From positions 1 through 34,406 of the forward strand of contig JAODGF010000005.1 in NCBI GenBank assembly GCA_025464645.1: DNA of 34,406 nt. Direction: 5' to 3'. The DNA comes from Methanosarcinales archaeon (GTDB lineage Archaea > Halobacteriota > Syntropharchaeia > Alkanophagales > Methanospirareceae). Under the pieces are notes generated by a model, which searched no databases, was not told the DNA's origin, and saw only the letters and a program-made list of their open reading frames with translations. The position numbers were made by a program, and so were the translations under genes. Shown here in pieces: positions 11,232 to 27,297 of this stretch (position 1 is its first letter; each line of letters starts with the position of its first letter).

Positions 11232-11651
11232 ATGAAAAAAGAGCGGACTTTTTTGATGATAAAGCCAGAAGGAGTGGAGCGAGGTCTTATAGGGGAAATA
11301 ATAGGGAGATTTGAAAGAAAGGGCTTTAAGATAATAGCGCTGAAGCTTCTAAAGATAAGCAGAGAGGTGGCAGAGAAGCAATATGAGGAACATCGCGGAA
11401 AAGACTTTTTCGAGGGGTTGGTTTCCTACATGTCCTCTGCTCCAACGGTATCAATGGTGATCGAAGGTGAGAATGCAATTGCAGTAGCGAGGGAAATGGC
11501 TGGAGTTACGAATCCAAAACTTGCAAAGCCAGGGACTATAAGAGGTGACTATGGCATAGACGTTCAGCGGAATGTAATACATGCCTCGGATTCTGAAGAA
11601 TCAGCGAAGCGAGAAATATCTATTCATTTTGGGAATCTCGACTCCTTTTAG
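11232..11651 (+). CDS. ndk: Nucleoside diphosphate kinase
   Basis: '[31 protein letters not shown]', 'GTIRGDYG' and 'NVIHASDS'. I chose the ATG at 11232, because the 11175 extension would overlap rpl24e. Confidence 0.9.
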
Positions 11652-11689
11652 TAAACCTTTTCTTGGAATATGTATAATTTTAGATTATT

Positions 11690-13468
11690 ATGAAAAGAAA
11701 ATTAGCTATCCTTTTGATATTAAGTATATCAGTAATACTACTAACACAAATAGCAGGATCGAGCTATTGCTTTGACGGTGTGCCTTATACAGACAAGCTG
11801 GATTTAGTAGCTCATGGCGCTTTAAAAGGTGGTATATATGTAGGTGAGAGTCGTGCACTTGCCTTCCCACCGTGTACAAGAACCTTCGCAGTGCCAGAGG
11901 ATGTCAAAATCAAGTGGGCGAGGCTGTATGTAGGAGTTTGGGGCGGCACGGAAAGATACACCGGTTGGGTTCACACAAAACTTAACGGGCAAGACCTCGG
12001 CAAGACGTTCCTCCTCGGCGAGAGGGATAACAATCCAAATGTTTATTGTAGTGGTCACGGCGTCTATTGGGTCTTTTATGATGTAGCAGATAAAGTATCG
12101 CCGGGGATAAACACCGCCATAGCGAACACCAGCAGGGGTGAACGTGGGAACAAACTCGATGGCAGGATATATAGTATCATCCTTGTAGCAATCTACGAGG
12201 ACGCGAATGCTCCTGAGATTTCATACTGGGTTGCAGATGGGAATGTGAATCTGCATGGTCTGGGCTGGGCAGGAACGGTGCCGACAACAAACGATTTCGC
12301 TTCGGTGAATTTTAAAGGCGCGATTGATCCCGCGAACGTAGAAGGAGCAGAACTTACCGCGGTTTATCTTGCCGGTAATCCCGGAGAACCAGACTACTTA
12401 GAGTTTAACGGGCAGGGCATAGGAGGAAATGACGTGGCAAACTGCGGAGACGGTGAAACTTACGGCATTGACCTCAAGACCTTTGACGTTACAAGGTATG
12501 TACAGGCAGAGAATAGCGCTCTTTTTCTGAGAGGGAAAGACATTAACGGCGATGGTAAAATAGAAGAGGATGACGAGGGCAACCGTGAGGGCGAGCATTA
12601 TCTTCATCCGGTTCTGACTGTTCTTATTGTTCGGCATAAAACCACAGAAAAAGCAATGCCTGACTTCTCCACCGAACTTGCACTGCCCAAGAATCTAACC
12701 GAGGGGGAGAATATGCTTACTACGGTCATAAATAATTATGGTGGATTGTTCGAGGACGATTTCGTATTGAAGGTCAGTGTTGATGGGTCAGAGATTTACT
12801 CGAAGGTCGTTCGTATGGATGCCAGCGGGATTAAGAAATTGGATGTCCCTTGGACCGCTACGCGCGGCGTGCATACCATCAAAGCAGAAGTTGATGCTGA
12901 GAGAGAAGTAGATGAATCGAACGAGGACAATAATGTTTTCACTTTGGAGGCTTATGTCATGCGTAAACCCGATTTGTCAGTAAAAATTCTAACGCCGGTA
13001 GCGGAGGAGAACCCTTCTTCTACTGCTTCTGCCTCCAGTGCAAATAGCAGAATTGGGATACTTGTAATAATGCCGTTGCTCATGTTTATCACGAAACCGG
13101 GGAATAAAAGAAGTCCCTTAGGTATTTTGATGTTTGTAATTCTGAGCGTTGCGTTGATTTTAAGCGGTTGCGTGGACAAACAGACTAAAGAGGAGCAACC
13201 AGGTATGCTCAGCTATTCGATCCCCGTAGAGATAGAAAATAAGGGAGAAGCAACAGCGATAAATTTTGAGTTATCTCTTTATGTGGATGGTGAGAAAAGC
13301 GTGACCAAAAGGATCAGAGAGTTAGAAGGTGGCAAATCCATCGTTGAAAAACTGCCAATTGTGGTGGCTGAAGGGAAACACCATATACGTGCAGTAGTGG
13401 ATGAGAAGAAAGAAGTTGAAGAATTCAGGAGGGATAATAACGAAGATGAGATTACATTCGATTTTTAG
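11690..13468 (+). CDS. Secreted DUF3344-like (type A module) + CARDB protein with an internal TM hairpin/lipobox and a second CARDB-like domain
   Basis: 592 aa with signal peptide 'KLAILLILSISVILLTQIAG'. Type A motifs are 'KWARLYVGVWGGTERYTGWV', 'NPNVYCSGHGVYW', 'DGRIYSIILVAIYE' and 'YWVADG'. The CARDB hallmark is 'VDESNEDNN'. Two hydrophobic helices at aa 455-493 end in 'LILSGC'. Confidence 0.6.
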   Translation: MKRKLAILLILSISVILLTQIAGSSYCFDGVPYTDKLDLVAHGALKGGIYVGESRALAFPPCTRTFAVPEDVKIKWARLYVGVWGGTERYTGWVHTKLNGQDLGKTFLLGERDNNPNVYCSGHGVYWVFYDVADKVSPGINTAIANTSRGERGNKLDGRIYSIILVAIYEDANAPEISYWVADGNVNLHGLGWAGTVPTTNDFASVNFKGAIDPANVEGAELTAVYLAGNPGEPDYLEFNGQGIGGNDVANCGDGETYGIDLKTFDVTRYVQAENSALFLRGKDINGDGKIEEDDEGNREGEHYLHPVLTVLIVRHKTTEKAMPDFSTELALPKNLTEGENMLTTVINNYGGLFEDDFVLKVSVDGSEIYSKVVRMDASGIKKLDVPWTATRGVHTIKAEVDAEREVDESNEDNNVFTLEAYVMRKPDLSVKILTPVAEENPSSTASASSANSRIGILVIMPLLMFITKPGNKRSPLGILMFVILSVALILSGCVDKQTKEEQPGMLSYSIPVEIENKGEATAINFELSLYVDGEKSVTKRIRELEGGKSIVEKLPIVVAEGKHHIRAVVDEKKEVEEFRRDNNEDEITFDF

Positions 13469-14453
13469 TGGTTTAACTCTTGCACTGATTATCTTTTCCA
13501 TTTTTACTTTTCCTTCAGCATCAGGCTCCTACGCGGGTGACAAGCCGCTCAATACGATAGCGCATGAAGAAATCTATGGCGGTATATTTTTTTCATTGGG
13601 AGATAGCAAATACAGTGGTCGGTTGAATTATAACGATACTTACGAGGTCAATTTTGAGCTCGGCGTGCTGAACACAGATAGAGATAAAGGAGTGAAATTA
13701 GCCAGGCTGTATGTCTATTGGGTCTGGAGCCAAAAAGAGAACGTGGGTGTGTACCCCATAATGGAAGTAAGGGCACCGGCAGAAAAAGAAGTTCTGAGTT
13801 CAGTCGTTACATACACGGATACGAAAGGATTTGTGGGTAAGTATGATTACTTCTCCGGCGTCAGTGTTTACAGTTGCAATTTAGATGGCGACTCCTACTC
13901 GGTTACCGTTAAAAACGTGGATGTAAATGGAAGCACTTTTTGCGTGCAGGGAATCGGATTGTTGGTGATATACGAATGTCAGGAGCAGGAGCCAGATCAA
14001 GATTGCCAGCTCATAGAGTACTGGGTCACTGAAGGCTGTGACATGATATATGCAGAGTATGGAATCACGCCTGAGATGGCTACCAGTAAGATTTTCTTTG
14101 ACGGTGAGCTGGAGTTGAAGAGGGTGAAGCGGGCATATTTAATAACCGTGGTTCCTTCAGGAGGATACGTATCAGGCGGAGAGACAGCGCATAATAAGCT
14201 TTACTTCAATGAAAAACGCGGGTGGCTTAGCAATCTCCCGTTCTTGAACCAGTTGCTGAGATTATTGTTCGGCTACGGTGGTGGTGTTTGGAGCGATGTG
14301 TATATTGCGGATAACACGGTCCAGATAGGAGTGGACCAGCGGGATGTTACTGAATATCTGAAGGCAACGAACAATTTTGCCGCAGTTCAAGATAATCATG
14401 ATTACATGATGGTGACAAATGCGGTGCTGGTGGTGGAGAAGGAAGAGAGATGA
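13446..14453 (+). CDS. Secreted single-module DUF3344-like protein (type B module)
   Basis: 335 aa from the ATG at 13446, with signal peptide 'LTLALIIFSIFTFPSASG'. Type B motifs are 'FFSLGDSKYSG', 'ARLYVYWVWS', 'GLLVIYE', 'EYWVTEGCDMIYA', 'LYFNE', 'DVTEYL' and 'DYMMVTNAVLVVE'. It overlaps the upstream gene by 23 nt. Confidence 0.6.
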   Translation: MRLHSIFSGLTLALIIFSIFTFPSASGSYAGDKPLNTIAHEEIYGGIFFSLGDSKYSGRLNYNDTYEVNFELGVLNTDRDKGVKLARLYVYWVWSQKENVGVYPIMEVRAPAEKEVLSSVVTYTDTKGFVGKYDYFSGVSVYSCNLDGDSYSVTVKNVDVNGSTFCVQGIGLLVIYECQEQEPDQDCQLIEYWVTEGCDMIYAEYGITPEMATSKIFFDGELELKRVKRAYLITVVPSGGYVSGGETAHNKLYFNEKRGWLSNLPFLNQLLRLLFGYGGGVWSDVYIADNTVQIGVDQRDVTEYLKATNNFAAVQDNHDYMMVTNAVLVVEKEER

Positions 14454-14484
14454 ATGGGCAATAAAAAATAAAATCACGTAAGAA

Positions 14485-15168
14485 ATGACCGTGGAAACGA
14501 GGGATTTAACAAAATATTACTGGATGGGAAAGGAGAAAGTAGTTGCTTTAGATCGCGTGACCCTGAAGATGGAAGAGGGGGAGTTCATATCTGTGGTGGG
14601 TCCTTCTGGGTCGGGGAAGTCCACGCTTTTAAATATCATCGGATGTCTGGATGCACCAACGAAGGGCGAGGTCTATCTGGCAGGATGGAAAGTAGATTAC
14701 AGAAATAAGCAGTCGTTGGTGAGGTTGCGGCGGAATTTTTTGGGGTTTGTGTTTCAAACGTTCAATTTGATACCGGCATTGAATGCGGTGGAGAACGTGG
14801 AGTATCCAATGTATTTCAATAAGGGCGGGAGGAGCAAAAGCGAGAGAAGAGAGAGTGCGATGAAGTTATTGGCGATGGTTGGTCTTGAAAAGCGTGCCAA
14901 TCATCTTCCTTCTGAACTCTCTGGTGGTGAGCTGCAAAGGATAGCGATAGCAAGAGCGCTTGCCAACGACCCAAAGCTTATACTTGCTGACGAACCTACC
15001 GGGAACCTTGACTCGCGAACAGGGAAAAGCATATTGAGTTTGCTCAAGCGGTTAAACGAAGAAGAAGGGAAAAACATCATCATGGTGACGCACGATCTGG
15101 AATCGGCGAAGAAGATGAGCAGGGTAATTAGGATATTAGACGGGAGGATAATGAGCAATGAAAAATGA
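14485..15168 (+). CDS. ABC transporter ATP-binding protein, MacB/LolD/FtsE-like
   Basis: Walker A 'GPSGSGKST', signature 'LSGGELQRIAIARAL' and Walker B 'ILADEPTGNLD'. At 227 aa it is typical of the COG1136 class. Confidence 0.85.
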   Translation: MTVETRDLTKYYWMGKEKVVALDRVTLKMEEGEFISVVGPSGSGKSTLLNIIGCLDAPTKGEVYLAGWKVDYRNKQSLVRLRRNFLGFVFQTFNLIPALNAVENVEYPMYFNKGGRSKSERRESAMKLLAMVGLEKRANHLPSELSGGELQRIAIARALANDPKLILADEPTGNLDSRTGKSILSLLKRLNEEEGKNIIMVTHDLESAKKMSRVIRILDGRIMSNEK

Positions 15169-15203
15169 AAGTGTAAAAAGAAAAAAAAGGGAAATAATGT
15201 GAT

Positions 15204-16415
15204 ATGAAAGAGTTATTTGCCTTAGCGAGCAGGCAGTTGAGGAGGAAGAAATTGCGCGTGTTTCTTATTGTGCTGGGGATAGCCATAGGAGTTGCCGCGG
15301 TAATTGGCGTCACATCGCTGGGTGAAGGAATTCGCGTTCAGGCGGTTGAGCAAATCAAGGCTTCTCATGATTTAACTACGATAGAGGTTTCAGCAGGTAT
15401 AGAAGCGGGCAGTGTTACGCTGATAACTGATTCAAAACTAAAAGCGATTGAAACGGCTGAACACGTTTTATTCGTGGCTCCATACGTGAGGGACTCGTAT
15501 GTCACGCAAAATAATACGTATCTTGCGGTTATGGGTGTCACCCCTGAGTATAGACAGATTCATGGTAATCTGCAATTGGAGAAAGGAAATTGGTTTAGTG
15601 AAAAAGGGAACCCCGGTGAGATTGTATTAGGCTACGACGTTGCAAAAAGACTGTCAATAATAGAGGATTTAGGATTGGGTGATGAGTTTGCGGTAAAAAT
15701 CAGGTTATACGGCGAGGAAGGGCGTCCAAAGGATAAAACTGCTGTGTTCAAGATCGCGGGCATACTGAAATCATCAGGTGATGAGCATGACAACCAGGTG
15801 TTTGTAGGTATCAAAGAAGCGATGGAGATGGATGAGAAAGATGCTTATGATGGGCTATTTGTAAAGGTAGATGACCCTGCTTTCGCTGCTTCTATAAGGG
15901 ATAGGGTAGAGGGTCTTGGATTGACTGCACATTCTGCGCAGGATGTGATTGATGAAGTAAACAAGCTGATGGTGGCAGTAACACTGGTTTTAGGCTTTTT
16001 TTCCGGTATTTCACTCGTTGTTGGCGCGCTTATGGTGGTGAACACGATGATTATCTCGGTTTACGAGCGAACGAAAGAGATAGGGCTGTCAAAGGCGTTA
16101 GGGGCATCGGATTTTGATATTATGAAGATGTTCCTTGCAGAGTGCGTGATTATAGGCGCCATAGGAGGAATTTTTGGCGATTTGCTGGGGATTGGCTTCT
16201 CTGTGTTGATAGACGTCGTAGGTAAACCTTTCCTGGTAAGTGCGCTTGGAGGCGAGTTAGGTACGGGTTTACAATCGGGCAGCATCACAGCGGTCACACC
16301 GTGGATATTGGCAGCGGGATTCGCGATTTCGCTGGTTCTTTCGATTGTGTCGGGTTTGTATCCCGCGAGAAGAGCGGCGAGGTTGAATCCGCTGGATGCG
16401 TTAAGGCAAATATAG
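15204..16415 (+). CDS. ABC transporter permease, FtsX/MacB-like (4 TM with a large extracytoplasmic domain)
   Basis: 403 aa. TM1 is at aa 18-39, followed by a ~210-aa soluble loop and then a three-TM FtsX-type C-terminal bundle ending 'GLYPARRAARLNPLDALR'. Confidence 0.8.
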   Translation: MKELFALASRQLRRKKLRVFLIVLGIAIGVAAVIGVTSLGEGIRVQAVEQIKASHDLTTIEVSAGIEAGSVTLITDSKLKAIETAEHVLFVAPYVRDSYVTQNNTYLAVMGVTPEYRQIHGNLQLEKGNWFSEKGNPGEIVLGYDVAKRLSIIEDLGLGDEFAVKIRLYGEEGRPKDKTAVFKIAGILKSSGDEHDNQVFVGIKEAMEMDEKDAYDGLFVKVDDPAFAASIRDRVEGLGLTAHSAQDVIDEVNKLMVAVTLVLGFFSGISLVVGALMVVNTMIISVYERTKEIGLSKALGASDFDIMKMFLAECVIIGAIGGIFGDLLGIGFSVLIDVVGKPFLVSALGGELGTGLQSGSITAVTPWILAAGFAISLVLSIVSGLYPARRAARLNPLDALRQI

Positions 16416-16717: not shown

Positions 16718-16857
16718 AAATGGGGCAAGTTAGGCAGTACCCCAATAGGTGAGAAGAAAAGGGAGGAAAAAAGTTATTTTGGTAAACCTTTTCTCCCACG
16801 CGCCGAGTAGGGGCGCGATATAAATACCAAAACAAATAGGAGGTGAAAAGAAAAAAG

Positions 16858-19800
16858 ATGAATAACAAAAATGGTATAGTATTGCTTGGAATAGTTGCGT
16901 TTTTTGCATTGGTTGCAATGACGGCGACAGCTTCTGCACAGCCAGCAGAGAACGTGGTTTGGCTCGAACCCGAGAATAGTAGTGTTCCAGGATATTGCAA
17001 CACCGTAGAGGTAGAAGTATGGGCTAACATAACTGATCCAGATGGATGTGCAGGTGGCACATTAAATATCACATACGATCCGGGATGTGCTAATGTAACA
17101 GATTGGGAACTCAACACTGTTGCTTGGCCAATGGGAACCTGGAATTCAAGTATCGAAGGCAGAGAGTGGATAACTTTCGAGACCATATTTAACCGAACTG
17201 GCAATGTACTAATTGGAACGCTGGCAATTCATTGCAAAAGTACAAGTTCATGCACAACTCCTTTGATATTCGATGAGGGTAGTTCATTGCTTGCAGAACC
17301 AGATGTAGAATGGAAAAACGGCACATTCACCTGTGAGGTCCCCAAACCCGACCTGAACGTGACTAAGGTTGAGGTGAATTATGATGCACCTGGTCTTGGT
17401 GGAAGAGCAGTCGGACCTGAACCTGGTCCTGGTGTGCACACGCAGTGTAACAACCTCTCTGCGGTGATAGAAAACCGCGGAGTATGCGTTGTATCTCCGT
17501 TCGATGTTACGTTTGAAGTAGATGGAACTACGTTATGTACAGTCCGAGTTCCTGGCTTGCCAGTTGGAGCTACCAAAACAGTGTATTGCAACTGTTCATG
17601 GTACCCCATGGCGGGGGACAGCTTTGCGATAAATGTCACCGTGGATTCTAATAACGAGATTCTTGAGTCCGATGAAACGAATAACACGATGTGGAATAAT
17701 GGAACAGTCGTTTCCAATGGCTACAAAGGCGGTGGTTGGCAGGGTCCTGACAGAAACCTGACAAACGTGCAGTGCCACTCACAAGATACGATCAATCTGA
17801 CCTATTCTGTCGGTGACAGCTATTATGCGAAAGGAAACTGGAGCGGAACTACGGAGTATGTGGTCAACTGGACTGCAAGTGATTTACCTGTTCCCGAGAA
17901 TGCAACCATCGAGAAGGCATGGCTATACGTGTATTATACATGGGACAAAGAGGGGATAATGCCAGACGGGGTTAACCTGAAGTTCAATGGTAACAATATA
18001 CCATTCGCTAGAAACTACTCGGACCGCAAGGGATTCGACGGTTATAACTATCCATACGGAATGCTAGTGTACGACGTGACCATCGCATTTACTGCAACGG
18101 GCAATACAGCAGTACTGACAAAAGCTACTCCTGATACCTACATACCGGTAAAGGGAACGCTTCTTATGGTTGTCTATAAGCATCCGGACGAGCCAGAGCG
18201 GATAATCTGCATTGACGAAGGATATGACATGATAAACGCACAGGCATCTTATGGTGTTACGCCGGAAGAGGCAACTACTTACGCCACATTCGAGTGCTGT
18301 GAGCCGATACCACTGAGCGAGATAGGAAAGGCTACACTGGTAGCTGTTGCGCCTGGTGCCAGTAAGGGGGATGACAAAAACAGGCTCTCATTCAATGGCG
18401 GACTATGGAAAGGAGCATGGTCAGGCTTTGCTGGGAGCACTGAACTCGGCATCGCTGAGACAGATGTACTAAATTATCTCAAAGAGGAAAACAACGTAGC
18501 AAACTTCCAAGACCGGGGCGACTGGATGGAAGCGAGCAACGCGTTCTTGATCTTGGAGAAAGGGATCGCAGAAAAGCCAGACTTAAAGGTGACGGAAATC
18601 GAGCTAAACTGCGGTGGCTACCTATTTGGAAACGAAAGCAATGAAATATGTGCAAAGATTGAGAACAACGGCAGCGGGGATGCAGGTGCATTCAATGTGA
18701 GCTTTGTTATTGACGGTTTCACCAAAGAAGCAAGAATAAACGGGTTGCCGGCAGGTGAAAATATAACGGTGTGCATTAAAGACACAACGAGCAGAAATGC
18801 TGGCGATTCCGTGAATGTTACCGTTACCACAGATTGCAATGGTGAAGTCTCCGAGTCGGATGAGACGAACAATGAATCCGCGATGACTACAACGGTAGTG
18901 AACAACGGCTACAAGGGCAAACGATACACGGGTGGCGATGACATCACTACATGGAAGACGTTTGAACTCCACGGTAACCTGGTGTACTCGCTTGGTGATA
19001 GCTACTATCTGAGTTCATACTCCTATCCTGACTGGACAACCTACACAGTCAATTGGACTGCAAGCGACCTGCCAGTTCCTGATACTGCAACCATCAAAGA
19101 AGCAAGATTGTATGTGCCGTACACATGGGACAAAGGAGGAGTAATGCCTGATGAGGTCAGCCTGACATTCAACGGAGTTGCTCAAACACTTGCTGCACAC
19201 TATTCAGATAGGAAAGGATACGGTGGCTACGATTACCCATACGGGATGCTGGTGTACAACGTAACCGGAGATTTTGATACAAGTGGCAATACCGCAGTTC
19301 TGCTCAACTCACATCCGGGTGGTGACAATGTATCCATACGCGGAATGCTCCTGGTAGTTGTGTATGCAGATGAGTGCGAACTGCCGCAGCGGAAACTATT
19401 TGTCAATGAAGGGTTCGACATGCTCTATGGTGGCGCATCTAAGTGTACAACGCCCGAAGAAGCAACGGCGTATGCACCATTCGGTGCGATGAAGATAGAT
19501 ATATCAAAGGTGGATAGTGCCAAACTGATAACCGTTGCCCCGGGTGCGGGTCCAAATGAAGGCGACCTGCTCTTCAATGGTCGGAGATGGAATGACGTGT
19601 GGAGCTTTACTACCGCTGCACAAATAGGCATTGATGAGCGCGATGTGACTTCCTATCTGCGTCCAACAGATAATGAAGCAGGGTTCCAGAGCAGCGGCGA
19701 CTACATGGAGGCAAGCAATGCCTTTTTGGTTGTGACGGAGAAAATAACAGAAGCAGAATACCAGAATATGATAACTCAGCCGATAGATGTCAGTAAAATC

Positions 19801-20010
19801 CGCTATAAGTTTATAGCCGTGAATGAGGAATGGGCAGCCAAATGGAGCAATGTGCTATTGTATGGACAGAGGGATACGAAGTATTCGATTGAGATACACC
19901 TAAATAAGGCGGGATATGTGACGAGTGTGGCTTTCGAGCGATGGGGCTTCCCAATAGCAGAGATCCCCGTTGAGCTTGCAGCACAGTCCTTAGCTAAGTT
20001 AAATCCATAA
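16858..20010 (+). CDS. Large secreted glycoprotein: cohesin-like domain + 2 x (CARDB + DUF3344-like type B module) + unknown C-terminal domain
   Basis: 1050 aa from the ATG at 16858; the ORF also opens at GTG 16843. Signal peptide is 'IVLLGIVAFFALVAMTATASA'. CARDB hallmarks are 'ILESDETNN' and 'VSESDETNN'. Type B motifs occur twice: 'SVGDSYY', 'WLYVYYTWDK', 'YSDRKG..GY.YPYGMLVY', 'NEG.DM' and 'ASNAFL'. I count 28 N-x-S/T sequons. Confidence 0.65.
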   Translation: MNNKNGIVLLGIVAFFALVAMTATASAQPAENVVWLEPENSSVPGYCNTVEVEVWANITDPDGCAGGTLNITYDPGCANVTDWELNTVAWPMGTWNSSIEGREWITFETIFNRTGNVLIGTLAIHCKSTSSCTTPLIFDEGSSLLAEPDVEWKNGTFTCEVPKPDLNVTKVEVNYDAPGLGGRAVGPEPGPGVHTQCNNLSAVIENRGVCVVSPFDVTFEVDGTTLCTVRVPGLPVGATKTVYCNCSWYPMAGDSFAINVTVDSNNEILESDETNNTMWNNGTVVSNGYKGGGWQGPDRNLTNVQCHSQDTINLTYSVGDSYYAKGNWSGTTEYVVNWTASDLPVPENATIEKAWLYVYYTWDKEGIMPDGVNLKFNGNNIPFARNYSDRKGFDGYNYPYGMLVYDVTIAFTATGNTAVLTKATPDTYIPVKGTLLMVVYKHPDEPERIICIDEGYDMINAQASYGVTPEEATTYATFECCEPIPLSEIGKATLVAVAPGASKGDDKNRLSFNGGLWKGAWSGFAGSTELGIAETDVLNYLKEENNVANFQDRGDWMEASNAFLILEKGIAEKPDLKVTEIELNCGGYLFGNESNEICAKIENNGSGDAGAFNVSFVIDGFTKEARINGLPAGENITVCIKDTTSRNAGDSVNVTVTTDCNGEVSESDETNNESAMTTTVVNNGYKGKRYTGGDDITTWKTFELHGNLVYSLGDSYYLSSYSYPDWTTYTVNWTASDLPVPDTATIKEARLYVPYTWDKGGVMPDEVSLTFNGVAQTLAAHYSDRKGYGGYDYPYGMLVYNVTGDFDTSGNTAVLLNSHPGGDNVSIRGMLLVVVYADECELPQRKLFVNEGFDMLYGGASKCTTPEEATAYAPFGAMKIDISKVDSAKLITVAPGAGPNEGDLLFNGRRWNDVWSFTTAAQIGIDERDVTSYLRPTDNEAGFQSSGDYMEASNAFLVVTEKITEAEYQNMITQPIDVSKIRYKFIAVNEEWAAKWSNVLLYGQRDTKYSIEIHLNKAGYVTSVAFERWGFPIAEIPVELAAQSLAKLNP
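17341..18564 (+). repeat. Internal tandem duplication unit 1 (CARDB + type B module)
   Basis: aa 167-574 align along their length with aa 578-967 of the same protein. Confidence 0.7.
18574..19743 (+). repeat. Internal tandem duplication unit 2 (CARDB + type B module)
   Basis: Shares the same motif order as unit 1, for example 'VNWTASDLPVP' in both. Confidence 0.7.
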
Positions 20011-20035
20011 AACGAAGGAAAAAAGGAACAAGGAT

Positions 20036-20069
20036 AGCTCCTACCAAGGAGCTTTTTATTTTTTTATTT
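20036..20069 (+). terminator. Hairpin + T-tract terminator
   Basis: AGCTCCT-ACCA-AGGAGCT (7-bp stem) followed by TTTTATTTTTTTATTT, 26 nt after the stop at 20010. Confidence 0.55.
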
Positions 20070-20085
20070 ATTAATAACTATCGTG

Positions 20086-20093
20086 TTTATATA
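20086..20093 (+). promoter_or_regulatory. TATA box (TTTATATA)
   Basis: Consensus octamer centred ~29 nt upstream of the ATG at 20119. This is consistent with a leaderless mRNA and argues against the GTG at 20083 as start. Confidence 0.45.
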
Positions 20094-20118
20094 TGATGAG
20101 GGGGTAAAGAGCGGAAAA

Positions 20119-22395
20119 ATGAAAAAAATAAAATATTTGCTGGCAAGCATAAGCATTATTGCGATATTTTACGTCACCATACTGTGCTTGATGGCAGTTC
20201 CGGTGGCAGCTAACTACAACTTCGCGGGATGGCCCGTGGAAACGAGAACGAATGGTACCGTAAACGGCGGTGTGTTCATTGGCTGTGAACCCTGGGCTGG
20301 GACAGAAACGCTTACGGGAAATTTTGACGTGCCTAACGGAACGGTTAAATGGGCACGTTTATACACCGGTATATGGGGAGGAACGGAAGATTACGAAGGT
20401 TGGGTGAACGTAACGTTCAACGGTATTTATAATAGAAATGGGCTTGGACCAATACATTTACGGGGTGTGAATGATGAAAACCCAAATGTGTGGTGCAGCA
20501 CCTATGGAAAATACTGGCTGTGGTATAATGTAACTGATTTAGTCAATGCCGGAGCAATGAATACTGCAACTACCTCAAAGATTAATACAACTGCTGGCGG
20601 TTTTGACGGCAGGGTGTATGGCATTGTTCTGGTTGTGGTTTACGAAGGAGGAGATAACCCAAAGAACGTTCAATACTGGATAAACGATGGAAGTGATGCG
20701 CTTCACTGTGCTACCTGGCCTCCTATTGCACATGACTCAGGGGCAACATACTTCAACGGCACGGTGAACACGGGTATGGTAAGCAATGCAAATCTCACGG
20801 TGGTGCACCTGACAGCTTATGAGCCGGGTTGTGATAGTTGCTTGAAGTTTAATGGTCACCACCTGGACACAAGCATGGTGGACAGCAACACGTTTGAGCT
20901 GAACTCGTGGAATGTGACAAGTTACATAGCATCCTCAGGAAACAATGCCTGGTTCAGTCGAGGCGAAGACTGCTATGTTGGTATTACCAATGCGATATTA
21001 GTATTGGAAAGAGAAGCGGTGGAGCAGCCAGACCTTATGATTACTGCGATTAAACCTTATCATTACGAGTGGTCGGCATACTATGACATACCCAAAGGTG
21101 ACCCGTGGTACAATCTTACGAATTATGTGAATGTTACGGTGAAGAATAATGGGACGGTGGCTGCGGGAAGTTTTGTGGTGAAACTATATGCTGATGAGAA
21201 ACTAATAGGGAATGCAACAGTTGCGGGATTAGCAGCAAATACTACCACGGATGTGAAAATCGAATGGAAGCCTGAAGGTGAAGATGTATTAGGCTGGGTG
21301 GACACCGCAGAAGGCGCTAAAATTGCGCACAACGATACCAGTAAGAATTATATGTTAAGGGCAGTGGTTGACGAAGACAATAAGGTTTCGGAAAGCAACG
21401 AGGAGAACAATAACCTCACAAAAGAGCAGAAAGTGGTTTGGAACGGCTTTGCAAGCGACGAGCCTCTGGAAAATTACGCTCACGGGAAGGTAAAAGGCGG
21501 AATAATCTACACGACTGGGGATGGTCAATACCGCGGTGTTGATTGTGATGGCACTAAATATGGCACTTGTAATAACGTGAGTTACGATTTAGAGATTCCA
21601 GGTAGCGTAAAGCTGGCAAGACTGTATATCTATTATACGTGGGCGCAGCCACCTTATAAAGCACCAAAGATAGGCGTTACGCTGAACACGCCTTCTGATG
21701 CTGTTCAAGAGTTGAACATGGAAAGGAGCTATAACGACATAAAGGGCGATTTCAGCTCGCATAGATTCGTATGGGGTACATACGCATACAATATAACCGA
21801 TTATGTAAATGAAAGTGGAAGGTATGTAGTGAACATAACAAACCTGAATAATGGAAGCGATCCTGAGTTCGCAACGAAGTATGCACTTGCAGCACCAGCT
21901 ATTCTTGTTGTTTATGAGAATGCAAGTGGTGCACCGGAAAGAGAGTACTGGATAAATGAAGGTGCTGACATCCTATTAGGAGGGAGAAGGTGCAAAGGAG
22001 GTTTTCTTTCCTTAGAAGAATGCCTTAATCACGCTACTTTTTCCGGTAGCATAAATCTGAGCGAAGTAGAGAAGGCTACACTTGGCGTTGCTTCTCCATG
22101 GGCGGGGTTTAGCTGGGAGCCCGGAATGACTAACTATCTCTATTTCAATGACTTCGAGTTGGGAAGAAATGTGTACTGTGGATATGACAGTCAGTGCTGC
22201 AAAACAGTAAACGGTATGATGATGAATGTAGGAGCTAACAATGCTCAGGTAGGTGTGAACGTAACCGATGTGACGAACTATCTTAATCCAAGTGATAATG
22301 TAGTTATTCAAGGTGATGATGGCGACTGTATGATGCCGAGTAGTGCCTTTTTGGTGATAAGCAGAAAAAGTAAAGAAAGGGGTATAAGCAGATGA
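20119..22395 (+). CDS. Secreted glycoprotein: DUF3344-like type A module + CARDB + DUF3344-like type B module
   Basis: 758 aa from the ATG at 20119, with signal/TM 'YLLASISIIAIFYVTILCLMAVPVAA'. Type A motifs are 'KWARLYTGIWGGTEDYEGWV', 'NPNVWCSTYGKYW' and 'DGRVYGIVLVVVYE'. CARDB hallmark is 'VSESNEENNN'. Type B motifs are 'YTTGDGQYRG', 'ARLYIYYTW', 'EYWINEGADIL' and 'MMPSSAFLVI'. I count 23 sequons. Confidence 0.65.
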   Translation: MKKIKYLLASISIIAIFYVTILCLMAVPVAANYNFAGWPVETRTNGTVNGGVFIGCEPWAGTETLTGNFDVPNGTVKWARLYTGIWGGTEDYEGWVNVTFNGIYNRNGLGPIHLRGVNDENPNVWCSTYGKYWLWYNVTDLVNAGAMNTATTSKINTTAGGFDGRVYGIVLVVVYEGGDNPKNVQYWINDGSDALHCATWPPIAHDSGATYFNGTVNTGMVSNANLTVVHLTAYEPGCDSCLKFNGHHLDTSMVDSNTFELNSWNVTSYIASSGNNAWFSRGEDCYVGITNAILVLEREAVEQPDLMITAIKPYHYEWSAYYDIPKGDPWYNLTNYVNVTVKNNGTVAAGSFVVKLYADEKLIGNATVAGLAANTTTDVKIEWKPEGEDVLGWVDTAEGAKIAHNDTSKNYMLRAVVDEDNKVSESNEENNNLTKEQKVVWNGFASDEPLENYAHGKVKGGIIYTTGDGQYRGVDCDGTKYGTCNNVSYDLEIPGSVKLARLYIYYTWAQPPYKAPKIGVTLNTPSDAVQELNMERSYNDIKGDFSSHRFVWGTYAYNITDYVNESGRYVVNITNLNNGSDPEFATKYALAAPAILVVYENASGAPEREYWINEGADILLGGRRCKGGFLSLEECLNHATFSGSINLSEVEKATLGVASPWAGFSWEPGMTNYLYFNDFELGRNVYCGYDSQCCKTVNGMMMNVGANNAQVGVNVTDVTNYLNPSDNVVIQGDDGDCMMPSSAFLVISRKSKERGISR

Positions 22396-24425
22396 AAAAA
22401 ACGGTAACGGTAGTCGCAATTGCATTCGCATTAGCATGCTTGTTTTTGCTTTTAAGCTTAAGCATGCTTGCACCTGCTTTAGCGCAGGATGATGTGCCAG
22501 ACCTTGGAATTACTGCGATTAAACCTTATCATTACGAGTGGTATGAGGATTATGACATACCTAAGGGTGAGCCGTGGTTCAACCTTAAGAACTATGTGGA
22601 AGTTACCGTAGTGAACTTCGGGAATAAGACTGCCAAGAGTTTCGTGGTGAGACTGTACGCGGATGGAGAACTAATAGGGAGCAAAACGGTTGATGAATTG
22701 CCAGCATATTCAGAAGATTATCCAGAAGCCAATACCACAGACGTGGAATTCGAGTGGGTGCCTGAAGGAGAAGACCCCTTGAGCTGGATTGATAGCGCAG
22801 AAGGAGCTAAACTCGTTTATACCGATACTAATAGGATTTACACGCTAAAAGCGGTTGTTGACGAGAATATGAATGAACTCACAAAAGACCATGAAGTAGC
22901 TTGGAACGGCTATATGGCGGATGCAGCCTTAGAGAACCTTGTACACGACACGGTAAACGGAGGGATATTATACACGACTGGAGATGGTGAATACAGGAGT
23001 TATGAGAGTGGAGATGATGGTACTAGATATAACACATACTATGACATCAATTATGATTTAGAGATTGCAGAGGGCGCAAAGCTGGCAAGATTGTATATCT
23101 ACTACACATGGTCGAAGTCAAAGGGTGTTAAAGAACCAAAAGCGCCGAAGATAGGTGTTACCCTGAAGACGCCATCAGGTATCACTCATGATCTGAGCAT
23201 GGAAAAGAGCTATAACGATATAAAAGGTAATTTACCCCCGCCTTACCACACGTATAGGTATTATGCCTGGGGGACTTATACATACGATATTACGGATTAT
23301 ATGGAAGAAAGCGGAACTTATGTGGTGAGCGTGACGAACCTGAATGATGGAAGTGACGATGACTTCGCAACTGAGTATTCGTTTGCACCTCCTGCTATTC
23401 TCCTGGTATATGAGGATACAGCAGCGCCGAAAAGAGAATATTGGATAAATGAAGGTGCAGACGTCCTAATGGGAGGGGGGGATGAAAGACCAGAGGGAGG
23501 TTTTCTTGACTTAGAAGATTGCCTTAATCATGCTGAGTTCCCAGGAGAGCATTTAGATTTGGAAGTAGAGGAAGCAGTACTTGGCGTTGTCGCTCCATGG
23601 GCAGATGATTCGGAAGACGATGTCATTTACTTTAATGGCAGAGAACTTGGAAGAGGTTTGTATAAGGGATACCATAATGAATATAGAAGCAGCGAGGATA
23701 TAAAGGGCATTTTAATGAATATTGGTACGGATAAGGCACAAATAGGGATGGCTGCGATTGATGTTAAAAGGTACCTCGAAGATTCTGACAATGAAGTAAT
23801 CCAGGGCGATGACGGGGACAACATGATGCCTGCGAATGCGTTCTTAGTGATAACATATAAAGAAGAAGAGGAAGGGGAAGGCGAAGGAGAAGGAGAAGGA
23901 GAAGTTACGCTAGCTTCTCCAAACATAACTGCCTGGAACCCCTTTGATGCGGTTGTAAACAGCACAAAGGGCGAATCAAGAACGTTCAACATCACCGTAA
24001 ACCAGACAGTAGGTATTAGCTGGCAAATAAATGGTACAGAAGTGCAAACAAATGAAAGCGTGACAGAAGCTGCCTACACGAGCACAAGCGCAGTTCTTGG
24101 AACCTGGAACGTCTCTGTAATGGCAACTAACACATCAACCGGATTATTCGATATGCACACATGGACGTGGCACGTAACACCTGCACTTACTGTAACGCCT
24201 ACACCTGCGAAAGCCATAACTACAACACCTTCACCTACTCCATCTCCAATTTTAATATCAACACCTGCCGTACCAGGTGCTACACCAACTCCCACACCAG
24301 TTCCAACACCTTCTGCCGAGGAAAAGCCAGGAGCAGAAGAAAAAACACCGGGATTTGAACTTGTAATCTCGTTATTTATATTAATTGCAGCAGCGTATCT
24401 AATAAGAAAGCATGAACGGAAATAA
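22392..24425 (+). CDS. PGF-CTERM-anchored protein: CARDB + DUF3344-like type B module + (EG)n linker + Ig/PKD-like domain + Thr/Pro linker
   Basis: 677 aa with a signal peptide. It is a paralogue of aa 316-770 of the upstream protein. The C-terminus is 'TPGFELVISLFILIAAAYLIRKHERK' (PGF tripeptide + TM + basic tail). ATGA start/stop overlap with the upstream gene. Confidence 0.7.
   Translation: MKKTVTVVAIAFALACLFLLLSLSMLAPALAQDDVPDLGITAIKPYHYEWYEDYDIPKGEPWFNLKNYVEVTVVNFGNKTAKSFVVRLYADGELIGSKTVDELPAYSEDYPEANTTDVEFEWVPEGEDPLSWIDSAEGAKLVYTDTNRIYTLKAVVDENMNELTKDHEVAWNGYMADAALENLVHDTVNGGILYTTGDGEYRSYESGDDGTRYNTYYDINYDLEIAEGAKLARLYIYYTWSKSKGVKEPKAPKIGVTLKTPSGITHDLSMEKSYNDIKGNLPPPYHTYRYYAWGTYTYDITDYMEESGTYVVSVTNLNDGSDDDFATEYSFAPPAILLVYEDTAAPKREYWINEGADVLMGGGDERPEGGFLDLEDCLNHAEFPGEHLDLEVEEAVLGVVAPWADDSEDDVIYFNGRELGRGLYKGYHNEYRSSEDIKGILMNIGTDKAQIGMAAIDVKRYLEDSDNEVIQGDDGDNMMPANAFLVITYKEEEEGEGEGEGEGEVTLASPNITAWNPFDAVVNSTKGESRTFNITVNQTVGISWQINGTEVQTNESVTEAAYTSTSAVLGTWNVSVMATNTSTGLFDMHTWTWHVTPALTVTPTPAKAITTTPSPTPSPILISTPAVPGATPTPTPVPTPSAEEKPGAEEKTPGFELVISLFILIAAAYLIRKHERK
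23862..23903 (+). repeat. GAA/GGN hexanucleotide-type microsatellite encoding EEEEGEGEGEGEGE
   Basis: gaagaagaggaaggggaaggcgaaggagaaggagaaggagaa, including three perfect GAAGGA units at 23883..23900. Confidence 0.8.
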
Positions 24426-24978
24426 AGAGAAAATACTGGCGATATTATTAACTGTCGCCGTGATACTTGTAATTTCGTCAAGCTCTGTTGTACTTACATC
24501 TATTACCACTGCTAAAGCTTCTGATACCACTGTAACGCGCATCCTATCCACGGCAAATCCCCGTCCTGGTTCAACATTCGATGTCACGTTGGACATAGAG
24601 GGGCTGCAAATCGGTGGCATCGTAGAGATGATCCCCGACGGTTTTGCATTCCTCCGCACTACACATCCTTCAAATCAAACTTATGTATCAGGGCAGAAGG
24701 TTGTCTTCGTTGTGGTCAATGAAACTTCGATAAAATATGAAGTGCGAGCACCCTCGGAAGGGAGTGGTACTTTCAGTGGAACGTGGTATGATGCCCTTAA
24801 CGAAAAGGAGGGGGATAGTGGTAGTACGAGCGTCTCTGTGAGTATGGCGGGAACACCCTCACCATCTCCCGCAGTACCAGGATTTGAAGTGGTATTTACG
24901 CTTACTGGATTGTTTGTAGTGGCGGTTCTGTTTTTATTTATTAGTAGAAGAGAAAGAGGAGGTGAAAGAGGTGAATAA
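24412..24978 (+). CDS. Small PGF-CTERM-anchored beta-sandwich-like surface protein
   Basis: 188 aa with an N-terminal signal/TM, one ~120-aa domain, a 'GTPSPSPA' linker, then 'VPGFEVVFTLTGLFVVAVLFLFISRRER'. It overlaps the upstream gene by 14 nt. Confidence 0.6.
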   Translation: MNGNKEKILAILLTVAVILVISSSSVVLTSITTAKASDTTVTRILSTANPRPGSTFDVTLDIEGLQIGGIVEMIPDGFAFLRTTHPSNQTYVSGQKVVFVVVNETSIKYEVRAPSEGSGTFSGTWYDALNEKEGDSGSTSVSVSMAGTPSPSPAVPGFEVVFTLTGLFVVAVLFLFISRRERGGERGE

Positions 24979-26053
24979 GTTAAAAGCGGTCTTTTTTTGC
25001 CTGGTATTTATGTGTGTCTTGTGTTCCTCTACGAACATCGTTTTTGCTGATGATATAGACAGCTTATTAAACAAGTGTGCAATCGCGCCCAATCCTAAAC
25101 CCTCTGTGATGGTGTATGATTACGAACTCAATCCAGAGACGTTGATGCCCGGTGACGTGGGTGTACTTACGATAACGCTTAAGAATATGCAGGATAAGCC
25201 AATAGAGAAGGATGTGGATATAAAGAGTGAGATAAAAGGTACCGGGGGTTACGTTACCGACATTGACACCGAGACAAGATTCACCATGGACGCCTACCTA
25301 AAAGAAGCATATATCGTTGAGCATGAATTTAAAGTATACAACAGGTATGCCTCGGTCGGCGTAATAGGACCAAATGAAAAAGTTGAGCTGGGATTTAAAA
25401 TAAAAGCACCGTCAGAAGAAGGCATATACATGCTGAAGTTCATTGCGGACATTGAAGATATGGAAGGCAAAAGGAGTAAAGGGATTCGTTATTTTATTCC
25501 GATTACGGTCACAGGTACAGTGAATATATTACCTCTGAGAGTTTCTGAGAGCGAGGTCTCCTTAGAAGTTATAAATGAGGGACTATCGGATGTTGATAGC
25601 GTGTATATTGCTGTTTCACCCGCAAGCGAAGTGGAATGGCAGCAGGAAAGAGTGTACGTTGGAAAGATAAAGTCTGGCGAGTCTGCTATTGTGGTGTTCA
25701 AGTTTAAAGTCAATGAAGTTAAGAATAAGGAAGGAGGGAACAGTGCTATTTTCAAAGCTACTTATAGGAACGGGATAAACAAGCACGAATCAAATCCGGT
25801 ATCTGTGAGCCTGCCGTGCTGCTCGGCGGAGGAGGAAAAAGCTAAGGGGAAAGGAGAATCGTTATTAGGAGAGGAATCTAAAGCTTCTTTTAGCGCTCTC
25901 ACAGTAACGCCAACACCAACTCTTTCATCATCTTCTTCGAGTTCTACATTCGCATTAAAATTAACAGACTTTGGAGTAGTATCTGCACTTGCCGGACTGC
26001 TGTTTGGAGTAGCGGTAGCATTTGCGAAAAAAAGAGGTGAGGAAGGGAGATGA
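24971..26053 (+). CDS. Secreted COG1361/CARDB-like two-domain protein with a Ser/Thr linker and a variant C-terminal anchor
   Basis: GTG at 24971 lies 8 nt after GGAGG; the ORF also opens at GTG 24962. 'NPETLMPGDVGVLTITLKN' is typical of archaeal S-layer-domain (COG1361) proteins. The C-terminus is 'TPTPTLSSSSSSS...LTDFGVVSALAGLLFGVAVAFAKKRGEEGR'. Confidence 0.55.
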   Translation: MNKLKAVFFCLVFMCVLCSSTNIVFADDIDSLLNKCAIAPNPKPSVMVYDYELNPETLMPGDVGVLTITLKNMQDKPIEKDVDIKSEIKGTGGYVTDIDTETRFTMDAYLKEAYIVEHEFKVYNRYASVGVIGPNEKVELGFKIKAPSEEGIYMLKFIADIEDMEGKRSKGIRYFIPITVTGTVNILPLRVSESEVSLEVINEGLSDVDSVYIAVSPASEVEWQQERVYVGKIKSGESAIVVFKFKVNEVKNKEGGNSAIFKATYRNGINKHESNPVSVSLPCCSAEEEKAKGKGESLLGEESKASFSALTVTPTPTLSSSSSSSTFALKLTDFGVVSALAGLLFGVAVAFAKKRGEEGR

Positions 26054-27297
26054 AATTAAGTAAAAGAGAAGGATTATTCTATTGCCTGCTGCTGATATTG
26101 ATTCTAACACCGGTGGTAATAATTGCGACTGCCACCACTACTGCTGCTGCGGTGAATATGCAGAATACCGATGGTATGAACGTTGTATCAAGGACTGAGG
26201 TAATAGAAGCGGTCATGGCGTATATGAAAGCCACATATTTGGGGGAAGAGGTAGATTATCCAGAAAAGGGAGAACTGCGTAAAGTTGCCTGTAGTCATTT
26301 TTATCAGGGGAGGTATCCAAGGATAATTAGGACTGCGACTGGAGAGAATGTCACGATATACAAGCCGTTGAAGAGAATAATCGTGCTGAATACGGATATT
26401 GCGGAAGCGATTCGCGTTTTGGGTGCCGATGATAGAATAGTTGGTATCAGTGATACAATAGCAAAACGAACAGATTTCTTCCCCACGATAAGTAAAAAAC
26501 CAGTAGTCGGCGGATGGAGGGAGATAGAACCCGAAGCAGTGCTGCAATTAGAACCCGATGCGGTATTTGCCTACGGGACATGGCCGGGTCCTGAATATAT
26601 AGAGGACAAACTCCCTCCTTCCATAACGGTCATTCGATTGGACTTCTTCAAGCCAGAAGAACTCAGAGAGGGGATGAAAACGTTCGGCTATTTACTTGAA
26701 GAAGAAGCTAATGCAAGTAAATATCTCGAATGGCATGATAAATATGTTGGAGAAATAGAAGATACAGTGTCAGAGATTCCAGAAGATGAGAAACCAAAGG
26801 TTTTCCTTGATAAGAGCGGGGTGGACTCAATAAGTGAACGCAAGACGTATTCAGAAGGAACAGGAATGCACCAGCTTTGTAAACTTGCAGGCGGGAGCAA
26901 TATGGCTATAATGGCAGAGCTTGTGGGAACATATCCAGCAGTAGAAACAGAGAAGATTTTGGAGGAAGACCCGGATGTTATCGTTGGACTTTCTCGCAAG
27001 GGTGGGTACAAGACGGACGATGAAACAGAGATAGAAGAAGAATATAAAAGGGTAATAGGACTACCAGGATTTGGTAATGTGACCGCAGTGGAATGCGGGC
27101 GTGTCTATTTAATGGATGGAAGCATTGCTTTTGGCTCTGTATATCCAGTTGGTCTCGCATACATGGCGAAGTGGTTTTATCCAGAAAAGTTCGAGGATTT
27201 AGACCCCCAAGCAATACACCAGGAATACGTGGATAAATTCTGTGGCATAGACTTTGATGTGACAAAGCAGGGAGTGTTTGTGTATCCGGCAATATAG
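26050..27297 (+). CDS. Membrane-anchored periplasmic-binding-protein (class III, Fe-siderophore/cobalamin type, Peripla_BP_2-like)
   Basis: 415 aa with an N-terminal TM, then 'IIVLNTDIAEAIRVLGADDRIVGISD' and 'EPDAVFAYG...', which are typical of FhuD/BtuF-like binding proteins. ATGA overlap with the upstream gene. Confidence 0.65.
   Translation: MKLSKREGLFYCLLLILILTPVVIIATATTTAAAVNMQNTDGMNVVSRTEVIEAVMAYMKATYLGEEVDYPEKGELRKVACSHFYQGRYPRIIRTATGENVTIYKPLKRIIVLNTDIAEAIRVLGADDRIVGISDTIAKRTDFFPTISKKPVVGGWREIEPEAVLQLEPDAVFAYGTWPGPEYIEDKLPPSITVIRLDFFKPEELREGMKTFGYLLEEEANASKYLEWHDKYVGEIEDTVSEIPEDEKPKVFLDKSGVDSISERKTYSEGTGMHQLCKLAGGSNMAIMAELVGTYPAVETEKILEEDPDVIVGLSRKGGYKTDDETEIEEEYKRVIGLPGFGNVTAVECGRVYLMDGSIAFGSVYPVGLAYMAKWFYPEKFEDLDPQAIHQEYVDKFCGIDFDVTKQGVFVYPAI

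Follow-up and report, generated by a model that had tools for sequence, protein, structure and literature searches.

The window analyzed here is a 34,406-nt contig (JAODGF010000005.1, assembly GCA_025464645.1) from a metagenome-assembled genome of ANME-1 (Methanophagales), a group of anaerobic methanotrophic (ANME) archaea; the genome comprises 1.67 Mb and is 87% complete. The window carries a module of four genes, all on the plus strand: D1 (positions 11690–13468) and D2 (13446–14453, with an alternative ATG start at 13401), which encode secreted proteins with the DUF3344 domain, followed by an ATP-binding cassette (ABC) ATPase of the LolD/MacB/FtsE class (14485–15168) and a type VII ABC permease (15204–16415). 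D1 and D2 overlap by 23 nt, with an AGGAGG motif just 5′ of the ATG at 13446. The gaps between D2 and the ATPase gene and between the ATPase and permease genes are 31 and 35 nt, respectively, and a 427-nt spacer follows the permease. A terminator scan detected neither a T-run (five or more) nor a terminator-like hairpin in these two gaps; because the sigma-70/intrinsic-terminator models used are unsuited to archaeal promoters, the scan served solely to check the gaps for these features. We infer from this layout that the four module genes are co-transcribed. An initial annotation of this DNA, made from the sequence alone, had placed the ABC pair directly behind two secreted module proteins, and the two open reading frames immediately upstream indeed encode signal peptides and DUF3344 domains.

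The ATPase matches the Pfam family ABC_tran and retains all of its motifs intact: Walker A, the Q-loop, an LSGGELQR signature, Walker B with the catalytic Glu, the D-loop and the H-loop. Its best NCBIfam models are LolD (the top score), MacB, DarD, YbbA, DevA and FtsE, every one of them under its equivalog cut-off, and this ranking places the protein in the same LolD/MacB/FtsE class as the initial annotation. In Pfam the permease matches MacB_PCD (PF12704; residues 20–236, 2e-29) and FtsX (PF02687; residues 265–396, 1e-20). Hydropathy and an AlphaFold2 model (pLDDT 83) give a first transmembrane (TM) helix and stalk at residues 16–54, an alpha/beta ectodomain at 59–244, and then TM2, TM3 and TM4. 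Four TM helices with a domain of about 210 residues between TM1 and TM2 had been predicted, and that architecture was recovered; the ectodomain itself (about 190–215 residues), however, is of the MacB type and not the FtsX type, as judged from Pfam and Foldseek. Its MacB_PCD match spans model positions 2–205 of 207, and Foldseek searches with the permease model returned MacB, LolE/LolC, Spr0695, YtrF and HrtB at a probability of 1.00, with FtsX weaker. Among solved chains, those nearest in sequence are YtrF, MacB, LolF, LolE and LolC. In architecture, fold and ATPase class, the pair is a type VII (MacB/Lol-class) ABC system, and its intact ATPase motifs likewise bear out the class first assigned to it.

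D1 consists of a signal peptide, an A-type DUF3344 domain, a CARDB domain, a hydrophobic hairpin with a basic loop, and a C-terminal CARDB domain. Pfam assigns it DUF3344 (PF11824; 3e-43, 148.8 bits) and CARDB, and assigns D2 DUF3344 alone (1e-56, 193 bits; the gathering cut-off is 27.2 bits). The DUF3344 domains fall into two deep types in a domain tree. Type A comprises D1 and the first domain of D4, one of the large DUF3344 proteins encoded downstream, and type B comprises D2, both domains of D3, the second domain of D4, and D5. Because D4 joins an A-type and a B-type domain in a single chain (A–CARDB–B), D1 (A–CARDB) and D2 (B) may represent the split form of one unit and may act as a pair.

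AlphaFold2 models D2 (pLDDT 82.6) as an all-beta protein with two sandwich or jelly-roll lobes. A sequence search with D2 against the PDB gave no matches, and the structural matches in the PDB are weak (TM-score of 0.29 or less), consisting of double-jelly-roll capsid proteins, the collagen-binding domain of ColG, and PNGases. Given the weakness of these matches, no enzymatic or lectin identity is claimed for DUF3344. The single hydrophobic segment of D2 in ANME-1 is N-terminal; D2 in ANME-2 has an additional C-terminal TM helix, which suggests that D2 works at the membrane surface. In the literature searched, DUF3344 appears only as an ambiguous adhesin-like cluster and in predicted surface proteins on a Methanoperedens plasmid (plasmid: PMC9674854).

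The hairpin of D1 (13052–13171, plus strand; approximately residues 455–495) was analyzed in an alignment of 18 orthologues. A short hydrophobic stretch comes first, then a basic patch, and then a second helix that terminates in ILSGC, whose Cys is encoded at 13169–13171. What might be taken for a C-terminal anchor plus a lipoprotein signal peptide is one in-frame two-helix hairpin, conserved across three orders, and its predicted topology would leave both the DUF3344–CARDB part and the C-terminal CARDB domain outside the cell. The lipobox-like segment of the initial annotation is thus present in D1, but the argument built on it is weakened. The Cys is kept in the segment-bearing ANME-1 rows and in all Methanosarcinales rows, but it is absent from three Methanomicrobiales orthologues that retain the full module, and the whole segment is deleted in G37ANME1 (locus L043), a genome in which the ABC pair is unlinked as well.

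This distribution bears on a Lol-like mechanism, in which D1 would be cleaved and lipidated at the ILSGC Cys and the ABC pair would extract or release the lipid-anchored C-terminal CARDB fragment. Such a mechanism would account for a hydrophobic residue, Ser/Thr/Cys, Gly and Cys in succession after a basic patch and a hydrophobic helix in the segment-bearing ANME-1 orthologues and all aligned Methanosarcinales orthologues, and in fold the permease is about as close to LolE/LolC as to MacB. Lipidation at an archaeal lipobox is also experimentally established and involves AliA/AliB (PMC12462473). However, the module has a single permease gene and not a LolC/LolE pair, no LolA-like gene accompanies it, and its NCBIfam scores are far under the cut-offs for LolD (239 vs 307.75 bits) and LolCE (106.6 vs 362.45 bits). 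To our knowledge, an internal lipobox 490 residues into a protein is without precedent. Because the Cys is missing in Methanomicrobiales, Lol-like lipoprotein extraction can hardly be the module-wide mechanism, and we regard this explanation as quite unlikely.

To place the module in its family, 25 genomes including this one were searched, of which the 24 others were scored. Permease orthologues with 74–92% identity occur in 7 of the 24; the paralogues are sharply set apart from them, at 37% or less. D2 orthologues (66–88% identity; all others 38% or less) were found in exactly the same genomes, such that both proteins share the same 8 of the 25. On its own, this co-absence says little, since neighbouring genes are lost, or missed in assembly, as a group. 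The order D1–D2–ATPase–permease, or the part of it that the contig covers, is retained in five of the seven other genomes. Family-level synteny by itself is weak evidence, since ndk also stays upstream of D1 in G37ANME1. Two natural variants of the module were seen, one with D2 truncated near residue 230 and the ATPase gene missing (L022/L046, 9555–10286) and one with a GNAT gene inserted (L025/L034, 4557–6040); both may be assembly artefacts.

Much stronger constraints come from wider comparison. When a D2-centred alignment was scanned against 185,579 species genomes, 79 loci were obtained, and the order D1–D2–ATPase–permease recurs in ANME-1, ANME-2a (Methanocomedens), Methanoperedens, Methanosarcinaceae and other Methanosarcinales, and Methanomicrobiales (Methanogenium and relatives). 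Across this range, D2 identity falls to 33–36%, that of the ATPase to about 50% and that of the permease to 40%. Where the D2 homologue has at least 43% identity and enough downstream sequence is available, the ATPase gene directly follows D2 in 31 of 34 loci, and it does so in all four Methanomicrobiales loci; the ATPase orthologues that follow D2 are 50–95% identical. D1 (573–637 residues among orthologues) lies directly upstream of D2 in 27 of the 29 loci with enough sequence. By comparison, none of 38 loci of distant DUF3344 paralogues (382 kb of flanks) has any MacB-type permease. In a maximum-likelihood tree, all 26 ABC-adjacent rows fall in a single DUF3344 clade (100/99 support) that spans three orders. 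Apart from these rows, the clade contains only G37ANME1, two truncated contigs, and L036, where D2 is followed by a cohesin/beta-helix gene. In the species-genome scan, the clade was recovered only from methane-metabolising Halobacteriota.

The initial annotation had suggested testing whether the order DUF3344–DUF3344–ATPase–FtsX is conserved in other archaea and had named a lack of such synteny as evidence against its proposal. Three archaeal orders keep this gene order, and only one DUF3344 clade shows it; the counter-evidence named was therefore not found. The median gap is 6 nt between D2 and the ATPase gene and −10 nt between the ATPase and permease genes, so the junctions look operon-like, being tight or overlapping, and the linkage appears to be translationally coupled. 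The flanks, in turn, vary both between and within orders and include ndk, GluRS/Mtd, FtsZ/Spt5, cohesin/dockerin proteins, DinB and a transposase. Because the flanking genes differ by lineage, the four genes must be held together by more than inherited gene order. When the permease is missing from the fetched locus, the genome nevertheless holds exactly one orthologue of it (five of five genomes, 51–81% identity), and G37ANME1 likewise retains exactly one orthologous permease despite the unlinking. Judged by these genome comparisons, the four genes behave as one selected unit. D1 and D2 appear fused in Methanogenium cariaci (L092), but the permease gene of that draft is broken into three frames, which points to sequencing errors, and the fusion was not counted as Rosetta-stone evidence.

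Several observations led us to conclude that the ABC pair is very probably linked in function to D1 and D2. The initial annotation had tied the pair functionally to the upstream DUF3344 proteins, and the clade-specific synteny across three orders supports that claim. Because the linkage is both clade-specific and translationally coupled, D1 and D2 are the obvious candidates for partners or clients of the ABC pair, and a partnership is supported by genomes that contain both D2 and the permease even though the two are unlinked. The same observations bear on the simplest alternative, namely that the pair is an ordinary MacB-type pump for efflux or self-protection and that its DUF3344 neighbourhood has no functional meaning. 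MacB-type pairs are common (this genome alone has four MacB_PCD permease genes), and some characterised members export drugs or peptides (PMC5985334). Such a pump, however, would leave unexplained a clade-specific linkage kept over three orders despite unconserved flanks, the overlapping start and stop codons within the module, and the fact that D2 and the permease still occur together in a genome when they are unlinked. We therefore disfavour this alternative and consider it very improbable.

Other observations, the first three of which show that the module can be broken up, weigh against a partnership of the ABC pair with D1 and D2: (i) In Methanosarcina the permease gene lies approximately 11.5 kb from the ATPase gene, upstream of it and at the head of the same cluster. 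(ii) G37ANME1 (G011 in the family set) keeps L7Ae–ndk–D1–D2, but its ABC pair is located 200 kb away, between a helicase gene and trpA. (iii) One family genome (G015) is without the ATPase gene and the end of D2, and another (G023) has its ATPase and permease genes separated by an inserted GNAT acetyltransferase gene. (iv) Of the 24 other family genomes scored, 22 have DUF3344 genes, and 15 of these lack both D2 and this permease, which indicates that DUF3344 proteins in general do not need the permease. (v) The fold of D2, with best PDB TM-scores at or below 0.29, suggests no activity.

In characterised type VII ABC systems, including LolCDE–LolA, FtsEX–EnvC, MacAB–TolC and YbbAP–TesA, cytoplasmic ATP hydrolysis moves an extracytoplasmic domain, and the target of this movement is a partner protein or a membrane-embedded ligand (PMC5985334, PMC7668044, PMC12646458). 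By analogy with these systems, we think it somewhat probable that the module encodes a type VII ABC mechanotransducer dedicated to D1 and D2 as its partners. The ATPase and permease would form a machine that presumably contains a permease homodimer and two ATPases. D1, with its A-type DUF3344 and CARDB domains, would be held in the membrane by its two-helix hairpin, and the secreted D2 would probably be retained by binding to D1, to the permease ectodomain, or to both. Binding and hydrolysis of ATP in the cytoplasm would move the extracytoplasmic domain of the permease, and the object of the resulting mechanical work would be the D1/D2 complex, or a hydrophobic or membrane-embedded ligand passed to it. 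No solute would be carried across the membrane by the ABC pair. As candidate outcomes, D1/D2 might change conformation or be released, a hydrophobic or lipid-linked molecule might be handed over, or a ligand might be freed. As was proposed at the outset, the ABC pair may extract, release or remodel D1 and D2. We infer, in this scheme, the physical contact between the module proteins as well as the stoichiometry, the mechanotransmission and the physiological output. The literature searched contained no paper on an archaeal MacB-type pair with DUF3344 partners, consistent with the statement in the initial annotation that no such role has been defined in archaea.

The genes that follow the module suggest another possible role. 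D3, D4 and D5 (16843–24425, plus strand) encode large multi-domain DUF3344/CARDB surface proteins, identified with Pfam and the domain tree. An exact 13-mer, GTAAACCTTTTCT, occurs in just two copies across the 1.67-Mb genome, both on the plus strand, one before D1 (11651–11663, 27 nt 5′ of the start codon) and one upstream of D3 (16782–16794). This 13-mer may be a shared promoter, operator or other control element of D1 and D3. An inverted look-alike, AGAAAGTTTTACC, is found upstream of D1 in three other loci (L033, L034 and L036). D1, D2 and the ABC pair might accordingly install, tether or remodel the large DUF3344 surface glycoproteins through contacts between A-type and B-type domains. In each of the three orders (ANME-1, Methanosarcinales and Methanomicrobiales loci), genes for large DUF3344 proteins with several domains come after the module, and the confinement of the 13-mer to the regions before D1 and D3 also fits this explanation. 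However, neither the number nor the architecture of the large paralogues is constant, the same 15 of 22 family genomes have them but neither D2 nor the ABC pair, and the 38 paralogue loci have no MacB-type permease nearby. A role in surface assembly is therefore improbable in our view, although less so than Lol-like extraction.

A further alternative to be weighed is trace-metal acquisition, in which the A-type and B-type DUF3344 proteins would capture nickel, cobalt or a metal chelate at the cell surface and the MacB-type motor would release the ligand or pass it to an importer. The importer would be an energy-coupling factor (ECF) unit of the CbiQ/CbiO type or a BtuF-like binding protein, and the proposal is compatible with D1 and D2 being partners of the ABC pair. 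One indication comes from Methanosarcinales, where the module clusters with a second DUF3344 sub-module. This sub-module (L049, 3319–7945; L061, 10720–15635; L054, 1383–6347; also L070, L079 and L082) consists of a fused ecfA1A2 gene on the minus strand, beside which lie cbiQ, an A-type DUF3344 gene (~315 residues) and a gene for an S-component-like membrane protein of ~360 residues. The latter protein combines a signal peptide with a beta domain and five TM helices, matches nothing in Pfam and may be a novel ECF S-component. ANME-2c has the ECF sub-module with DUF3344 genes but without the MacB pair.

Nickel regulation provides a second line of support for metal acquisition. In five ANME-2a loci, a nikR homologue on the minus strand lies directly after the permease and converges with it (L047, 12227–12631; L048, 6695–7099; L049, 12969–13289; L050, 11109–11516; L051, 10017–10421), and nikR is present within 10 kb at 10 of the 79 DUF3344 loci. 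On a Methanoperedens plasmid the order is NikR, then DUF3344 genes, then EcfT/EcfA (PMC9674854). An orphan gene for a BtuF-like binding protein (Peripla_BP_2) recurs at the edge of the DUF3344 cluster in ANME-1 and in a Methanogenium metagenome-assembled genome (window, 26050–27297; L041, 20003–21032; L066, 19174–20382), and the restriction of the D2 clade to methane-metabolising Halobacteriota also agrees with such a role.

Several findings point away from a metal function. Neither an ECF unit nor anything related to nickel was found in this window or in the flanks of other ANME-1 or Methanomicrobiaceae loci, and a search of this genome (87% complete) did not recover the ECF-associated membrane protein. 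The five ANME-2a loci with adjacent nikR belong to close relatives, and most Methanosarcina loci have no nikR beside the module. No NikR operator was recognised: a guessed GTnnnAC palindrome is present neither upstream of D1 nor upstream of the three nikR genes of this genome, and de novo counts of inverted repeats upstream of D1 and in the spacers between ecfA and cbiQ gave no shared palindrome. Moreover, the invariant residues of DUF3344 show no conserved Cys/His pattern of a metal site, and import is not known for type VII ABC systems. The hints of a metal role are real but lineage-restricted, and we consider metal capture by the DUF3344 proteins possible but rather doubtful. A broader version can be formulated, in which DUF3344 A/B pairs would be unrecognised extracytoplasmic capture modules that plug into a MacB-type mechanotransducer (this window) and into an ECF importer of the CbiQ/CbiO type (Methanosarcinales), jointly obtaining nickel or cobalt from sulfidic environments for methane-metabolising archaea, with the force of the MacB motor freeing the bound ligand. 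This version is speculative, and we hold it to be somewhat less likely than metal capture as such.

A gene at 24962–26053 of the window encodes a secreted protein of 363 residues. A homologue with 27% identity is encoded directly before a different MacB-type system, comprising an ATPase and two permease genes, in other ANME-1 genomes (L041, 855–5238; L039, 2–3613). In ANME-1, secreted beta-rich proteins may repeatedly be paired with MacB-type ABC systems.

Nearly all that is known of type VII ABC systems comes from bacteria (Lol, FtsEX, MacAB and YbbAP), and no study of an archaeal type VII ABC system with defined partners was found in the literature searched. A mechanotransducer that acts on D1 and D2 would provide a concrete, conserved and genetically testable case. 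The module is present in Methanosarcina species, which offer an established genetic system for testing the prediction. The module also ties a large, uncharacterised family of surface domains, DUF3344, to an energy source in ANME archaea and methanogens, which is relevant to the methane cycle. If true, the metal link would bear on how methanogens and ANME archaea obtain nickel and cobalt.

Compared with known systems, the module resembles MacB (of MacAB–TolC) and the Gram-positive MacB-like pumps Spr0693–0695 and YknXYZ in its four-TM permease with a Porter/Sabre-type periplasmic core domain and in its ATPase class, and MacB from A. baumannii, aligned over residues 2–401, is among the best sequence and fold matches to the permease. 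In contrast to MacB, the ATPase and permease are encoded by separate genes, and the conserved neighbours are two DUF3344 beta-sandwich proteins. MacAB–TolC further differs in having a membrane-fusion protein (HlyD/MacA), an outer membrane and TolC, all of which the module is without; no HlyD-family adaptor was detected among the ten cluster proteins scanned, and the orthologous loci are neighboured by DUF3344 genes. The likeness to LolCDE–LolA lies in the fold class, in LolD as the top ATPase model and perhaps in the lipobox-like Cys of the adjacent D1 in two orders. LolCDE, however, combines LolC with LolE, or LolF with Lol partners, whereas the window and all orthologous loci have one permease gene; LolA and LolB are likewise missing from the module, and the Cys of D1 is not conserved through its range.

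With FtsEX (partners EnvC, PcsB, RipC and CwlO) and YbbAP–TesA, the module would share a concept, that of a motor acting on a dedicated extracytoplasmic partner with no transport of solute (PMC7668044, PMC12646458). The partners themselves differ, being all-beta DUF3344 proteins here and coiled-coil activators or a lipase there. The ectodomain of the module permease is of the MacB type and has ~200 residues, compared with the short Porter/X-lobe of FtsX, and the host is an archaeon without peptidoglycan. Scores for the FtsEX models remain below the cut-offs for both FtsX (28–54 vs 225–255 bits) and FtsE (196.5 vs 264.85 bits). YtrEF of Bacillus subtilis is the nearest system by two measures, YtrF being the best phmmer match to the permease (3.8e-28) and giving the highest structural TM-score (0.67), but the identity is just 22% and the genetic context differs. 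Defining features of each of LolCDE, FtsEX and MacAB–TolC are missing from the module, and hence it is none of these three systems. Its new element is the conserved pairing, in archaea, of a type VII ABC system with a split A/B DUF3344 unit.

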